Positions 2,878 through 10,720 of a stretch of DNA of 64,000 nucleotides are shown piece after piece; the stretch's first letter is position 1, and each line of letters opens with the position of its first letter. Source of the stretch: a virus (Duplodnaviria; Caudoviricetes). The notes beneath the pieces were generated by a model. It searched no databases. It was not told the origin of the DNA and saw only the letters and a list, made by a program, of their open reading frames with translations. The DNA lies in the IMG/VR virus record IMGVR_UViG_3300010167_000019, positions 1-64,000 of that record; one strand, given 5' to 3'. A program made the translations under genes and the position numbers.

Positions 2878-4035
2878 ATGTATAGGATTCTACTTTTCAG
2901 TGATTTGCATATCGGCAGTATTAAAGAAATAACTCATGTCTATGATACCCTTACCAGAATCCTAGATACGGAATTAGTCTATCGTAAGTCAGATGCTATT
3001 ATCATCCTAGGAGATTTCTTCCACAAGCTACTTCGAGTGAACGAAGAGCATACCACCTTGGCCATAAACATCATGTCCTACTTGGTGCGTCTCTGTAAGA
3101 AAAATAAGACCAAGATACGTTTGTTGTATGGAACAGAAAGTCATGAGGCTTCGAGCTACACTCTTTTCAATTATCATCTGACTGATCCGGACTTAGACAT
3201 GAAGTTAGTTACTACTGTCAGTGTAGAAGAGCTTTTTCCTAAGGTCAATATTTTGTATGTTCCTGAAGAGTATGTGGAGAGTAAAGAAGAGCACTACCGA
3301 AAATACTTGGATAAAAAATATACCTACATCTTTGGTCATGGGATCATCAGTGAAGGTATGCCGATGATTGGTTTAGAAAATACTTCTGTACAGGAAAGGA
3401 AACTTCCTCGTTTCAAGGTAGGGGAGTTGAGTCAAGCTTCCACACTGACAGTCTTCGGCCACTATCACAAATTTACTGAATTGCCAGGTAATGTCTACTA
3501 CCTGGGTTCACTTTTCCGAGATTCCTTTGGGGAGGAAGAACCTAAAGGCTATGGCATCGTCGAAGGGAATAAATTGACCTTCATAGAAAATCCAGATGCC
3601 TACATCTATAAGACCTATGAGTATCCAGCCGATTCGGATATCTACACCAGCACTGCTAACCTCTTAGCGGAGATCAATAAGATTAAAATGGAGAATGAGG
3701 AAATCTTCACAGAGAATCGTTATGGGAAGATCAGAGTCATTTTTAATCTACCAGCAGATATTAATTCTAGCTTTTCGGAAAACTTAAGGCTATTATTAAT
3801 GAAGGAAAAAAATATCCGCTATATTTATAAGGAGGCTTCTTCTATTCCAGAAGATTTAAGTGCAGAGATTCAAGTCGAATATGATTTCATCTTGGATGAC
3901 TCTCTAAGTGTTTGGGAAAAGATTTGTAGATACATCGATAAAAATTTTCCCGGTAGTGATTTAGACTTAGCTGAGATAATTAAACTTACCAATGAAAGAT
4001 TGGAAATTTATCGCAATGAAGGAAAGGGTCCTTAA
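2878..4035 (+). CDS. sbcD: SbcD/Mre11/gp47-like metallophosphoesterase recombination nuclease
   Basis: Motifs SDLHIG, GDFFH, GTESHE, FGHYH and YLGS. Confidence 0.85.
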   Translation: MYRILLFSDLHIGSIKEITHVYDTLTRILDTELVYRKSDAIIILGDFFHKLLRVNEEHTTLAINIMSYLVRLCKKNKTKIRLLYGTESHEASSYTLFNYHLTDPDLDMKLVTTVSVEELFPKVNILYVPEEYVESKEEHYRKYLDKKYTYIFGHGIISEGMPMIGLENTSVQERKLPRFKVGELSQASTLTVFGHYHKFTELPGNVYYLGSLFRDSFGEEEPKGYGIVEGNKLTFIENPDAYIYKTYEYPADSDIYTSTANLLAEINKIKMENEEIFTENRYGKIRVIFNLPADINSSFSENLRLLLMKEKNIRYIYKEASSIPEDLSAEIQVEYDFILDDSLSVWEKICRYIDKNFPGSDLDLAEIIKLTNERLEIYRNEGKGP

Positions 4036-4052
4036 CTAGGACCCTTTCCTTC
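4018..4052. terminator. Bidirectional terminator between the nuclease gene and the 3' end of the TIGR-like transcript
   Basis: gaaggaaagggtcc-ttaacta-ggaccctttccttc, 14-bp perfect stem at a convergent junction. Confidence 0.75.
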
Positions 4053-4069
4053 TCAGTATTTTCTCTATA

Positions 4070-4458
4070 GGGTTGCTTAGACTGAATGACATACTAATTG
4101 TGTTAGGTTCCTTTTCATTTTTTAGGTAAATTTTCCTTCGTAGGGTTACTAGGAGTGCACTGATACATTTTTAGCACATGGGTTGATTATTACAGGCAAT
4201 GCAGTTTGTTGTATAGGATTGCTAACAATTCCTTGATGTAATTATTTCTGCGGAGATATCAGTTTTCAGTTACACTTTTCTGCTCAGGGGGTAAAGTTAA
4301 TACGCACGGTACAATCAAGGCGCATGGACTCTTTCGTTTTTCAGGTACACTTGCTTCATTGGGTTGATTAATTGTAATGGTGCACTTTGGGGTGATAGGG
4401 TTACTAATAATACCTGTTGCGTTTGTGACAATGGATTGCTAAGGAACATTGGCTAAGT
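4070..4458 (-). ncRNA. TIGR-like 36-nt dual-repeat array, distal segment (~11 units)
   Basis: Alternating + strand motifs GRTACAHT and GGRTT at ~18-nt spacing, e.g. gggtt-actaggagtgcact-gatacatt-tttagcacat-gggtt. Confidence 0.8.
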
Positions 4459-4459
4459 T

Positions 4460-4535
4460 ATGATAGCAACTCACCGCGGTGATTCCTGTTATTAGCAGGC
4501 ATTGTTCCGGTGTGCTCCACCGTACTATCGTTTTA
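4460..4535 (-). ncRNA. TnpB omega-RNA 3' part / IS200-IS605 right end
   Basis: After the tnpB stop the minus strand reads TACGGTGGAGCACACCGGAAC...GCCTG-ctaataa-CAGG-AATCACCGCGGTGAG-TTGCTA-TCAT: typical stem-loops, a GAATC-stem-GAG subterminal hairpin and a TCAN end. Confidence 0.7.
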
Positions 4536-5684
4536 CTATTTGGCTAAACGTAGACCTTCTCTCAGTATATTTTTGGCAGCATTGATATCTCGATCATGGA
4601 TCACACCACACTGTTTACACTGCCATTTCCTTACCAAGGGAACTGTAATGTCCTTGTCCACCTTTCCACATTCGTAACAAGTCTGGCTGGATGCATAGAA
4701 CTTACCGACCTTCACCAATTTCTTATCATACCATTCAGCCTTGTACTCCAATTGTCTTACCAGTTCACCCCAAGCTACATCATGGATCGATCGGTTGATG
4801 TTCTTGCTCTTCTGACCTGGTTCCACAGCTTGCATCCTTGGAATAATAAGACTTTCCACACAAATGATATCGTACTCTCTGACTAAGTGAATAGATACTT
4901 TGTGGAGATGATGGTTTCTTTGGTTACGAATTTTCTGATGGATTTTGGCTAACTTGATACGAGTCTTGATGTAATTCTTACTACCCTTTGTTTTTCGGGA
5001 TAGTAATTGTTGCATCTTTCGTAGTTTGTGTTCCGATTGCTTGAGATGCTTTGGGTTGAGAATTACCATGCCATTGGAGGTGACTACTAACTTACGAATG
5101 CCTAAGTCAATGCCTATGCTGTTTCCTGTTCTGGGAAGTGAATCTGGCACCACATCAGTGCAACATACGGCAACGTGATATTGACCACTAGGATTTTGAG
5201 ATATGGTAGCATTTAGTATCCTACCCCGAATTGGTCTATCAATGACAGCCTTGACTAAACCAAGTTTTGGTAGCTTGATACGATCGGTATCGATGACGGC
5301 TATATTCCCACCGTCGGTACCACTAGGAGCAAATCTAGATGTGTAGGATTTGTGGTTATCACGCTTGCGTTTGAATTTAGGATAGCCTATAAAATTACCC
5401 ACCTTGAGTCCTTGGAAGAACTTTTGATAAGCCCTGTCCAGATTTCTCAAGGCATTTTGCAGAGCGGCATTCTCTACCTCATATAACCATTCCTTCTCCT
5501 GCTTCAACTTAGTGAGTTCCAATGCGCATTGATAATAGTTTAACGTTTGCTCATTCATGTCATAGACTTCTTGTCTTTTGGCTAGGAAGTGATTGTATAT
5601 GAATCTAACACAGCCAAAGGTTTTTTGGATGAGGGTTGCTTGTTCAGCATTGGGATATATCCTGTACTTGAATGATTTCTCCAT
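4536..5684 (-). CDS. tnpB: TnpB RNA-guided endonuclease (IS200/IS605 family)
   Basis: N-terminal KSFKYRIYP...FGCVRFIYN; RuvC motifs GIDLG, VESL and DRDINAAKNI; Zn finger CYECG/CKQCG. SD GAGGAGGTGA supports the ATG at 5684. Confidence 0.95.
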   Translation of the reverse strand: MEKSFKYRIYPNAEQATLIQKTFGCVRFIYNHFLAKRQEVYDMNEQTLNYYQCALELTKLKQEKEWLYEVENAALQNALRNLDRAYQKFFQGLKVGNFIGYPKFKRKRDNHKSYTSRFAPSGTDGGNIAVIDTDRIKLPKLGLVKAVIDRPIRGRILNATISQNPSGQYHVAVCCTDVVPDSLPRTGNSIGIDLGIRKLVVTSNGMVILNPKHLKQSEHKLRKMQQLLSRKTKGSKNYIKTRIKLAKIHQKIRNQRNHHLHKVSIHLVREYDIICVESLIIPRMQAVEPGQKSKNINRSIHDVAWGELVRQLEYKAEWYDKKLVKVGKFYASSQTCYECGKVDKDITVPLVRKWQCKQCGVIHDRDINAAKNILREGLRLAK

Positions 5685-6599
5685 ATACAATCACCTCCTC
5701 ATCGATACAATACTTTTATGAGGATTTCTCTTGCTTGAAGGTTACAGTTACAAATCCCGGGTTTCTCAATACTACGGCACATTTCAGGTACATTACGCTA
5801 CTCAGGGTTATAGATTACGGTCGATGGTACCAGTGTATTTTTTAGGGTTACCTTAAACTTTAGGAGACAATCTCACCTAATGGGTTATTTACGTACATAG
5901 GTCATTTGAATACCGGGGTTACTATATCCCTCTGGTACACTTTTTACGCCCGGGTCATTATAAGGATCTGATACGTTAGTGAATCTGGGTTACTTTTACT
6001 GGAAGGATACATTTTTCTTTTCCGAAGATCTCTCTGTCTCTTGATACACTTTACACATACGAATTTTTTGATAAGCTAGGTGCCATTCACAAGCATGGGT
6101 CTCTCAAAAATCTAATGCAATTATTTAGTATGGGACATTCTTGTTTTCGGATACATTACCAAACTAAGGTTGACTTGCTGACTGTAATACACTTATATGA
6201 GCTGGCTAGTCGTCTGGGTAGTAGAGTTGTCAGTCATGGTACACTTTTTACGCCCGGGTCATTATAAGGACGAGGGTACATTTGATGCTGAAGGTTTTCT
6301 ATTATCTTGAGATAAATTCAAAGACTACGGGTTAATTGTTGACTATGATGCATTTTTTCTGTCGAGGGTCTTTCATATCGCCGAATACATTTAAATGTTT
6401 CGAGTTAATACTTTTACCAGGTACGCTTATAATCGCTGGTTTTATCTATATCATGACACACATTTTCCTTATTAGGATTCATTGACTGTTGAGGTTACGA
6501 TTATATCCTCTGAGTTGTTTTGAAACAATGGCACGTTATCAGTGTTTGGTTTACTTTGTTATACTGATACATTAGACTGAACTGAAATTATTTATGCAC

Positions 6600-6651
6600 A
6601 TGATAGCAACTCACTGTAGTGATTCCTGTTATTAGCAGGCATTGTTTCCGG
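6600..6651 (-). mobile_element. Orphan copy of the tnpB right end / omega-RNA 3' hairpins inside the array
   Basis: atgatagcaactcac(tgta)gtgattcctgttattagcaggcattgtttccgg versus 4460-4510 atgatagcaactcac(cgcg)gtgattcctgttattagcaggcattgttccgg. Confidence 0.85.
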
Positions 6652-9600
6652 ATTGGGCTAATTTTAAGTGCACTAGACAGAATAGGGTTAATTTGTATTA
6701 CTGGTACAATGGCAATACTAGGGTGACTAATTGTTTTAGGCACATTTGTTTGCAAGAGACAATCTATATCTGTGATACGATTTAGTTAATAAGGATTGCT
6801 AATTGCTTTCGACACATGCATTTCTCCCAAGGGAATTTTTATACTGCTGATACAATCAGTTTCTATGGGTTATTTATCTATCCACGGTACACTAGATAAT
6901 CCAGGGATTTTTTGATGGGAATAGTACATTCACATCGTAGGGCTAATAACATAATACGGTACGTTTCAGCATACTGGGTTTCTAGGAAAACTATAACTCG
7001 TTGCTACAACATGAGGAAATATTCCATGACGACATATTTGTGTTCTACGGGTTGCTACATGTATCTGATGCGTTGAATATGATCGGTGTACTTTCATCAT
7101 ATGAGACATTGTTGGCTTTCGGAGTCATTTAGACGAATGATACACATTTGTGGTGTGGGATAACTAAGACCATGTGGTACAGTAAATAAGTTTGGGTGGA
7201 TCAACCATTCCGGCTACATTGAAGCTCTTTGGATTGCTAATTTAATCTGATAAATTACATTGACATACCACTGGGTTGTTTTGTAGTGCCGATGCATATA
7301 GGGCAATGGATTGTTAAATGGTCTAGATAAATTATATTCTCCTTTATGGATTGCTAATGATCGTAGATACAGTTATATCCTATGGGTGTCTGGCTGCCTC
7401 CGGTAAATTTTATGACACGGGTTGAGTTTTCAAAGGATGATAGGCTCATTTCTTTAGGATGAGTATCGTAGTATGACACAATTACATGTTATGGGTTTAA
7501 CACATTATCGGTACATTCTATCGTTATGGAGGTCGATGTTGCAATATGACACACTTATTTGCGTTGGGTCACTAGTCTGTTAGGATGCATTACATTGATA
7601 TGGGTTGATCTCTGAGACTGGTACAATTATGATGATCGGGTTGATGCAACTTTAAGATATAATCACTCTGTCTGGGACAATCTGCATTTGAAGGTAAATT
7701 AGATGGAAGCAATTAATTCTACTGGGCTGATGTGGCGACTGATACATTTTTTATTGCTGGGCTGATGACTCTAGACGGTACATTACATTCCATAGGATTT
7801 ATTTCTGAATCCGGTACAATTCCCGCTAATGGGTGATTCTAAATCTTTTTGGCACACTATTACTAGGTAAAGGTAAAATTAATCATCAGGGTACATGGAT
7901 GGTAGACCCACATCTCAAGATACATTAAAGCTCTTTGGATTACTTCGAAGGTATAATACAATTCCATATTTTGGGTGACTAGCTACTGAAGGCAGATTGC
8001 TCTTTGAGGTTGACTATTCTTGATTGGTACATTTTCCACTCATGGGGTTATAAGTGTTAAGCGATACACTGGGTCTTGATGGGTCATTGGTGTATTGAAG
8101 GTACGCTCTTGACAACGGGCTAATTAGAACTAGGACACGTTAATAATTTATTGGTTTTTGTTTCTGTTCCTAACACATTCCTCTGCATTGGTTTATTCCG
8201 CGTGCTAGATAAAATTACATTCAATGGATTGCTAGGTGAGCTTGATAAGATATTTTTCTTATGGGTTTATCTTCTGATACTGGTACGCTTCCCTATGGCG
8301 AGTTACTATGTTATCCGTGGCACACTCTCATCTTTCAGGATCATTCTGTTGTTTAGGTACATTAGCGAGATACGGATTAATCGTTGATTACGACACATTG
8401 CCTTTCTTAAGGTTTCACATTTGTAGTTCTGGTACATTGATTGTTTTAGGGTTACTTACCTCCTCAAGTTACATTGAGCTTCTGAGGGCTTTCCCTGCAA
8501 GATACAGTTAATGGTCCCAGGGATTATTTTTGAATCAGATACATTTGTAACTTATGGTCTGGACTTTCTATCTCGGTAAGTTTAGTATATCAGGGGTGTC
8601 TTACTTTCATCGGCACAATTACTTCATTGGAATTCTTTGGGACGATGTTACATTAGTTCACAACGAGTTGCTTCTCTGTGAAGATCAAGTTTATCGTGCT
8701 GGGTTTATGTGAGGCTATGGTACAATTTATTTTTTGGGTGATTAAAGAAGTAGGTTACATTTCGGAAAATAAAATTTTTTACCCAATGGGATACATTGAC
8801 TACCTCTGGGATAACTCCTGCCAAATGATGAAATAGCTGATTTGGGGGATAGTCGATACACATGATATATTATTTTAACTGGGCTGCTATGTCTTGCTGG
8901 TACAATTTATGGTATCGGGTTGCTTAGTGTTAATGAAGCATTAAGTGTAATTGGAAGGCTGGTTTATCACGGTACAATTTCTCAGCGTGGGATTGTCAAA
9001 GTTATCGGTGCAGTGAGATTCAAAGGGTTTCTTTCGGGTTATGATAAAATTCTACATCATGGACTGATAGAGGGTAATGGTACATTTCGTTGTAATGGGA
9101 TCATACTCGAAAGTGATACAATAGAAATTTCTGGGATAGTTGCTTCATAGGGTAATGCTCATGATAAAATTTGTAAACATGGGTTCAGTGTTGCTGGTTG
9201 GTACACCTTTTTACAGCGGATTGGTAAATCTACATGGTACAATCACTCTACGTCATTGGGATCTTAAAATATTTAGGTAGAAATCATTATTCTATGCTGG
9301 GTTGGTAATTGAAGTTGATATAATTGTATTGGGTGGGTCATTGGTTGAGTATGATACGTTTCATTAGCATGGGTTACAAAGGGACAATGGTACAATTATG
9401 ATTCCGGATCACTTGCTCTCAAGGTATAATAATCTTGACTGGTGTACTGCATATATGTGGTACAATTATGCTCTGAGTTGCTTAAACTATTTAGGTGCAA
9501 TAAAGTTTTCGGATCAGTTGTTCTGATTGATACATTTCATACATGTGGATTTATACCTGCTTAGGATACATTTCTTGGTGTAGGGTTAGTAAGGATTTTT

Positions 9601-10686
9601 GATACAATTTACACATCTGGGTCACTGAGGGGTTAGGATGAATTTTCACTGATTGGTTTATTACTACTATCTTGATACAATCTCATATGTTGGATTACTG
9701 ATGCAACCTGATGCAATTTACATAATTGGCTTCCTACCAACCTCTGGTACATTTGGAGATTTTGGATTCCTAGATGTGAAAGGTACAATCTTTATTGTAG
9801 GATTATGTTATACATCTCGATAGGCAATTTGTATCGATGGGTCCCTAAACTGTCATGGTTAATTTTCTATCTTGGAAGGTAGTAGATCAAAAAGATACAT
9901 TTGATGCGTAAGGTTTTTTAAACGAGTTTGATGCAATTAAAAATCATGGGAATAGTCTAGCGTTCTGATACAGTAGAAACTTCTGGATTTCTTAGATGAA
10001 GCAGTTACATTTTACTCATTACGGATCTTAGTGGATTTTGATACATTGCTTGTACAAGGGCCTCTAGGTATCAATGATGCAATTGCAGATGTAGATATTG
10101 GGAGACTAGTCAATCTAGTCTCCCTCACTCATTCCTTCACTATGGATTATTTGCGTCTCATGTTGCATTACTGCGCTTCAATAAAATGGATCAACTATGC
10201 TATTTTGACACACTCTGGGGTCAAGGGCTTCTTCATCATTTCGGAACATTTTCAGGGATCGGACTACTACAGAACAAAGATACACTGGTGCTACCAGGAT
10301 CCCTTCATCAGGGAAGGTACATTTCCTACGGCTGGATTAATTCAGATGGTGCGGTACATTTTCAGGTCTTGGGTTTCTACAATACCATGGACACATTTGC
10401 TAAAAGCGGATTGCTAGGCCATCCGGGATTCAATTCCAATTTCTGGGTTGTTACACCTAGTGGGTACATTAATTTTTTTTGGACTCATTCGCACTTACGA
10501 TACATTGCATCAAACCGGGTTATTTCATACCATCGGTACATTAACATAGACTGGGATTTTTACTTACCGGGATACATTATTGATGCCTGGGTTATAACAT
10601 ATCGATATTCGATAGCAAGGGTTTCTGAGAACACAAGATACAATTTTTCCTCTTCAGGATTATCTAAGTCATAGCAATACATAGAG

Positions 10687-10720
10687 TAGGGATTAGTCTG
10701 GTTAACCAGACTAATCCCTA
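10687..10720. other. 34-bp perfect palindrome near the start of the array (terminator, attenuator or processing hairpin)
   Basis: tagggattagtctggtt|aaccagactaatcccta. Confidence 0.7.

Follow-up and report, generated by a model that had tools for sequence, protein, structure and literature searches.

TIGR arrays and TnpB both belong to recently described RNA-guided systems. In 2023, Altae-Tran and colleagues reportedly placed the origin of type V CRISPR-Cas12 in a tnpB gene that had inserted beside an array. The genes of insertion sequences (ISs) can be restrained at the RNA level, by occlusion of the ribosome-binding site in IS200 tnpA mRNA and by fold-back inhibition in IS10. As a nuclease, TnpB serves in the homing or retention of its element (Meers et al. 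2023, PMC10055086; Zedaveinyte et al., PMC10690162), and domesticated, nuclease-dead TnpBs termed TldR have conserved gene partners (Wiegand et al., 10.1101/2023.11.30.569447). TIGR arrays have been described with box D and box C motifs in a 36-nt dual-repeat layout, where the opposite-strand, gapless arrangement of two spacers yields the reported 3' overhangs (PMC12045711), and nuclease-less Tas proteins of the TasA type repress transcription (10.64898/2026.09.09.750476). TnpB is not a described component in the published TIGR-Tas descriptions that were compared, and a transposon nuclease inside a TIGR array is not mentioned in them.

The locus reported here belongs to a jumbo phage from termite-gut metagenome runs. 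Its source contig is an IMG/VR virus record of 80,201 bp, estimated to be ~30% complete, and the window, meaning the whole stretch of DNA that was analysed, is the first 64 kb of it. On the minus strand, a tas gene is followed by an array with a period of 36 nt that runs down to 4053 and then by a GC-rich hairpin (Table 1), which gives the arrangement of a TIGR-Tas locus, a 36-nt dual-repeat array adjoining a Nop-domain Tas. The Tas protein matches PDB 9mty, a solved chain of the IS110-C/Nop type (E 2e-8), as well as ~90 Tas-like proteins. In the alignment it is ~130-170 aa longer than its relatives, with an acidic insert near residue 100 and another of ~130 aa after the WNYAGVG motif.

Parsing of the array gave three blocks with 115, 25 and 11 units (~151 in all), and the plus-strand unit reads GRTACAWT-N10-GGRTTNNT-N10. 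On the minus strand both repeats finish in YC/CC, often followed by A, and a UG lies within the first repeat, features that fit the box D/box C layout and transcription in the direction of tas. The 11 units beyond the right end of the inserted element are no more degenerate than the rest of the array, giving no sign of polarity-driven decay, and the 25 units between RE2 and tnpB form its least regular part. An exact 34-nt duplication (5933-5966 and 6237-6270, 304 nt apart) covers one A and one B repeat with the spacer between them and part of the spacer that follows, so that identical tigRNA spacers are present twice. Additionally, a perfect 17+17-nt palindrome at 10687-10720 (TAGGGATTAGTCTGGTT/AACCAGACTAATCCCTA) lies within ~100 nt devoid of array units, a stretch that separates the array body from the first unit behind the tas stop, and is a possible operator, terminator or processing site.

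Table 1. Features of the tas-array-tnpB locus (positions in the window)
Feature	Position	Strand	Remark
tas gene, 534 aa	10796..12400	-	upstream of the array, same strand as the array
Main array body, ~115 TIGR units	6652..10795	-	
tigRNA unit, spacers UGAGGAGGU and AAAACAAUC flanking an A-rich repeat	8431..8475	-	
RE2, orphan 52-nt copy of the right-end terminus	6600..6651	-	joins an array B motif; different flank after it
25 TIGR units between RE2 and tnpB	5704..6599	-	first unit, 5704-5740, abuts the tnpB 5' UTR
Shine-Dalgarno (SD) AGGAGG	5694..5699	-	9 nt before the ATG
Predicted long-range stem, 17/18 bp	5584..5699	-	5699-5682 (SD and AUG) pairs with 5601-5584 (codons 28-33, FIYNHFL)
tnpB coding sequence, 382 aa	4536..5684	-	RuvC D193/E277/D366 and 4-Cys zinc finger intact
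3' part of the omega-RNA scaffold and right end RE1	4460..4558	-	outer end 4460; from covariance model and second copy
Predicted 20-nt guide AACTTAGCCAATGTTCCTTA	4440..4459	-	array sequence
11 TIGR units downstream of the right end	4053..4459	-	
15-bp GC-rich hairpin	4018..4052	not assigned	distal array end; common to the convergent SbcD-like gene

The only long ORF within the array (4536-5690, minus strand) encodes a TnpB protein, with ATG 5684 as the likely start, the stop at 4536 and 1,149 nt free of stops and frameshifts. All three TnpB Pfam domains are present (HTH_OrfB_IS605, OrfB_IS605 and Cas12f1-like_TNB). ISDra2 TnpB (8bf8) aligns end to end (E 1e-89), placing D193, E277 and D366 on its D191, E278 and D361, the catalytic triad. 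These three residues and the cysteines C336/C339/C356/C359 (CxxC...CxxC) are invariant across an alignment with 14 relatives, so an earlier, sequence-only reading of the locus was right in calling the RuvC D/E/D residues and the zinc finger intact; it was also right that an SD precedes the gene, its coordinates being corrected from 5691-5700 to 5694-5699. The window protein, which is the outgroup of this alignment, keeps 97 of the 114 columns that are invariant in the 14 relatives, and the 17 lost are mostly conservative changes. Among 5.8 billion clustered proteins, no TnpB is closer than 57% identity, and the GC content and codon use of tnpB are indistinguishable from those of the phage, suggesting that its residence may be old with the ORF still unbroken.

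For comparison, 80 bacterial TnpB relatives of 35-51% identity were gathered, the closest of which (47-51%) come from gut Clostridia, Lachnospiraceae and Eubacteriales genomes. From stop codon to right end the relatives share one plan, in which a first hairpin, a CCTG...CAGG stem carrying a long insert, GAA and then a terminal hairpin lead to the tail GTTCA(A/C). A covariance model of 19 bacterial relatives, made with the window excluded, was searched against 9 kb on both strands and gave a sole match under E 1, at 4464-4558 on the minus strand (23.1 bits; E ~1e-4 on a rough calibration), covering the whole model. The scaffold overlaps the 3' end of tnpB, finishes at the right end and is followed by the guide, the architecture expected of an omega-RNA, and by homology its terminal hairpin is TCAC-N4-GTGA, as in loci L090 and L091. 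The scaffold is shortened, by 23 positions in the stem insert and 10 in the terminal loop (~33 in total), and ends in GTTGCTATCAT where the family has GTTCA(A/C), so its activity is not assured. The single-sequence fold of the region is not distinctive (z -0.75), and Rfam holds no family for it.

The right end itself was defined by its two copies. RE1 and RE2 are 94% identical over the terminal 47-52 nt, with three substitutions and one indel in 52 nt, and the identity ends precisely at 4460 and 6600, beyond which the flanks differ; this fixes both the right end and the predicted guide. The RE2 boundary thereby bears out the sequence-only reading that the omega-RNA end runs straight into array sequence, from which the guide is taken. 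At its inner edge, RE2 meets the array B motif at a CC(GG) microhomology. This truncated second copy shows that the array has undergone IS events more than once. A putative compensatory stem change between the copies was rejected, as all three differences fall in the tetraloop. RE2 as the missing left end was likewise rejected, because RE2 shares with RE1 the sequence on either side of the right-end hairpin; in the relatives, left and right ends have only the hairpin in common. The guide AACTTAGCCAATGTTCCTTA has no other match in the 80-kb contig, and the genome search that the sequence-only reading had proposed for it returned zero matches in 185,579 genomes. The guide predicted from the RE2 flank is absent from the rest of the contig, and no copy of the right-end core was found in viral or metagenome contig collections.

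At the other side of tnpB, array sequence comes almost to the ribosome-binding site. A position matrix trained solely on 6700-10800 scored 19.8 at 5704 and 15.6 at 5741, above every one of the ~103,000 non-array positions used as background (maximum 13.6), demonstrating that the repeats at 5704 and 5722 are real. The array thus extends to 5704 with the two repeats that had been proposed, and only the strict register once ascribed to it is loosened, since the unit spacing drifts from 35 to 38 nt. The full TIGR unit beginning at 5704 is about 20 nt from the tnpB ATG and 4 nt from AGGAGG. Excising 4460-5703 would restore no normal unit, leaving either a 19-nt spacer instead of a 10-nt one or two adjacent A-slots, so the site is not one of clean insertion.

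The proposal that there is no room for a left end or tnpA also held, given the array unit at 5704. The left-end hairpin that would have contradicted it was looked for at 5685-5765, where no significant one was found; within the array region, hairpins of the right-end type, TCAC-N4-GTGA, are confined to RE1 and RE2, and the window has no left end of the IS200/IS605 kind, with a subterminal hairpin and a TAM. Neither a Y1 nor a serine tnpA was detected on the 80-kb contig by the PF01797 and PF00239 profiles or by tblastn with the TnpA of a relative, a search that covers ~30% of the phage.

What should stand upstream of tnpB can be read from the bacterial relatives. Among 79 loci of these relatives, 18 have a co-oriented Y1 tnpA 18-38 nt ahead of tnpB, and most of the closest loci are in this group; several others carry tnpA stubs only and many have tnpB alone. 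The left end is readable in one group, as TTTGAAA, ~85 nt with a hairpin and then tnpA. At L096, L101, L102 and L122, TTTGAAA directly precedes the left ends of independent insertions, ~500 nt upstream of tnpB, which suggests, on comparison of these sites, a TTGAA-like TAM for that Clostridia clade. The left-end hairpin of Clostridia relatives, CCCACTGGCTTTAGACGGTGGG, mirrors the right-end hairpin. In the window, GGAGGTGA-N6-ATG matches the GGTGA-N6-ATG found between tnpA and tnpB in the relatives, and everything further upstream is array. Judged from the tnpA spacing in the relatives and the ~85-nt left end, ~0.5 kb is missing. As far as sequence goes, both IS remnants in the array are left-truncated and right-intact.

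Read-through from the array is the simplest source of a tnpB mRNA, considering that tnpB is co-oriented with tas, lies inside the array and is followed by 11 units and by the only strong hairpin, at the distal array end (4018-4052). Co-transcription of tnpB with the array is plausible on this gene order. Sigma-70 promoter and terminator scans gave chance-level results and are uninformative, because the phage has its own RNA polymerase. Translation is another matter, as a long-range stem over SD and start codon dominates the predicted fold of the tnpB 5' region (z -3.2), with none of 200 shuffles equally stable. The duplex energy is -28.4 kcal/mol, compared with -14.0 +/- 2.3 kcal/mol for shuffled SD segments. 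A ribosome site held within an 18-bp stem argues against efficient translation from a long transcript, and the modelled stem is likely a translational brake on any transcript. It is absent from the five viral relatives examined (L002-L006).

A further possible layer of control lies in the array. The spacers of the tigRNA unit at 8431-8475 match 5684-5701, spanning the tnpB SD to AUG, at 9/9 and 7/9 positions (16/18), on opposite strands with no gap in tandem-spacer geometry. A roadblock on tnpB is conceivable, given the transcriptional repression by nuclease-less Tas proteins. With shuffled spacers, a match arises somewhere in the element in 26% of cases and with the right geometry in 15%, and a chance figure of 0.7% holds only for a window chosen after the fact. 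Contig-wide, the tigRNA target search yielded eight matches of right geometry versus four of wrong geometry, near chance. The match to tnpB is a weak sequence lead, not a finding.

Taken together, the element is best explained, with a probability of roughly 0.6, as a left-truncated, immobile remnant of an IS605-type element that persists as a selfish TnpB-omega-RNA unit guided by the adjoining array. The remnant would correspond to the right-hand two thirds of the IS, from the intercistronic SD through tnpB and the omega-RNA to the right end. After inserting into the transcribed strand of the phage TIGR array, the IS would have been stripped of its left end and tnpA, leaving array sequence fused 4 nt upstream of the SD and a remnant that can no longer transpose. 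If expressed, tnpB would depend on tas/array read-through and be kept low by the ribosome-site stem. The nuclease and the shortened omega-RNA look intact, which makes a still selfish TnpB-omega-RNA unit most likely, and the native pair is probably functional. TnpB would then cut array alleles that lack the element, and recombination during co-infection would copy the element in, amounting to homing or retention. Such homing between co-infecting phage genomes is plausible, and the homing-like drive that the sequence-only reading offered as its alternative is simply this established function of TnpB. Against the remnant reading, the break spares precisely the SD and the complete ORF, as might be the case if TnpB expression were under selection. 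The possibly old residence of an ORF that is still unbroken, and an omega-RNA whose shortening and deviant tail leave activity unassured, also count against it. No empty allele, recognisable TAM or transcript was seen, and no RNA run is listed among the sequencing runs that contain this DNA.

A mis-joining of bacterial IS reads into the repetitive phage array during assembly is scarcely credible. Depth is indeed low (~6x), the unitigs in the array are fragmented, and the unitig that crosses the right-end junction reaches only 22 nt into the array. Yet a Logan unitig of the source run, an independent assembly, spans 5292-5962 and hence the tnpB 5' junction with zero differences, the same protein occurs in two assemblies (contigs of 80 and 91 kb), a second right-end copy lies elsewhere in the same array, and loose ends were not seen at 4460 or 5703. 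Among the unitigs, no joint or loose end points to a tnpB-less allele. Array pieces 3971-4121, 6042-6280 and 7234-7384 recur identically in a termite-gut metagenome of a different study and year, indicating that at least those parts of the array are stable between samples; tnpB is not among these pieces, at a depth of 2-3x that is too low to bear on it. More weight, although still unlikely, is due to the view that the element is an inert relic, immobilised, with its TnpB-omega-RNA dead or not made, and persisting because little time has passed or because array deletions are costly. The buried ribosome site, the shortened omega-RNA with its atypical 3' tail, the 17 of 114 invariant columns lost and the single occurrence would all be accounted for. 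Such a relic sits poorly with an ORF of 1,149 nt that stays unbroken while the right-end copies differ by three substitutions and one indel per 52 nt, with the retention of all catalytic and zinc residues, and with lost columns that are mostly conservative in a protein that is the outgroup of its set. The unbroken ORF set against the RE1/RE2 differences hints at constraint, with the reservation that RE1 and RE2 may not derive from one source copy.

The sequence-only reading had suggested that tnpB may be domesticated, which the comparison with other loci does not support. No tnpB homologue occurs within 10 kb of tas in any of 80 related viral loci (1.0 Mb searched), all of them distant, at 55% identity or less; the nuclease is intact; and decay is common among the bacterial relatives. 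The phage's own proteins were found in only one or two assemblies, the phage collection contained no similar DNA, and none of the collections searched contained relatives close enough for an empty-site comparison or a dN/dS estimate. Exaptation of TnpB by the TIGR locus as its second RNA-guided effector, serving as a nuclease arm for the nuclease-less Tas or as an allele drive, expressed from the array transcript and perhaps checked by tigRNA-Tas on its 5' end, is accordingly improbable. It draws on the co-orientation of tnpB with tas inside one transcription unit with units and a terminal hairpin downstream, on the SD and ORF preserved at the break point, on phage-like composition, and on the 16/18 tigRNA match in 3'-overhang geometry together with the reported repression by TasA-type proteins. 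It is opposed by the 0/80 count, by a guide that is array sequence and has no other target in the contig or the genome collection, by a tigRNA match and contig-wide geometry counts close to chance, and by the nuclease-dead state of the domesticated TnpBs known so far. Such recruitment into the TIGR system is possible with no positive support, and on sequence grounds the setting is unusual and nothing shows that the phage has adopted tnpB. A long shot is the full scenario of TnpB as a TIGR partner, made from the array transcript, held low by both the ribosome-site stem and a Tas-tigRNA complex on its 5' end, and carrying an array-derived guide with which it would either drive the array allele through co-infecting phages or take a first step towards a Cas12-like effector, the orphan right end being a proto-repeat.

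If the element is only a stranded IS, it represents ordinary IS decay in an odd place, which would mean that an interruption of 1.2 kb is tolerable in very long phage arrays and that the jumbo phages of termite guts are within reach of IS605 elements. If TnpB is active, the locus offers a natural test bed for TnpB homing between phage genomes without TnpA, and for the silencing of an IS gene inside a strongly transcribed guide array. It would also raise the question of whether an immobilised tnpB beside a guide array resembles the proposed intermediate in the birth of Cas12.

Among known systems, the closest are the IS200/IS605 elements of gut Clostridia and ISDra2 of Deinococcus radiodurans, with which the window element shares the TnpB domain order, triad and zinc finger, the 3' architecture of the omega-RNA, a defined right end, and a guide taken from the right-end flank. 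It differs from them in having no left end, tnpA or recognisable TAM, in an omega-RNA that lacks distal stem 2, has a 4-bp tetraloop hairpin and ends in GTTGCTATCAT, and in its host and site, a jumbo phage and a guide-RNA array. As in IS200 and IS10, a predicted stem over SD and start codon would limit translation of an IS gene, from outside transcripts as well. Unlike in those elements, SD and start codon pair with a strand 83-100 nt into the ORF, and the five viral relatives do not share the stem.

As in TnpB homing, an intact nuclease with a flank-matching guide would cut element-less alleles and recombination would restore the element. A vacant site made by TnpA is not possible in the window, in contrast to that system, and by analogy co-infecting phage genomes would be needed instead. 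TldRs are resembled in the loss of tnpA and left end and in the position of the gene amid non-transposon genes of a mobile element, whereas the inactivated RuvC and the conserved association with a non-transposon gene that mark TldRs were not found here: the triad is intact, the right end is recognisable, and there is neither a conserved gene partner (0/80) nor an external target. Compared with the proposed origin of Cas12, the array belongs to an unrelated system (TIGR, with a Nop-domain Tas), only one orphan right-end piece is present, and there is no sign that TnpB uses array units as guides. The likeness to that origin lies in an immobilised tnpB whose scaffold reads straight into a short-guide array, and in RE2, which with its own flank resembles a repeat-spacer unit.
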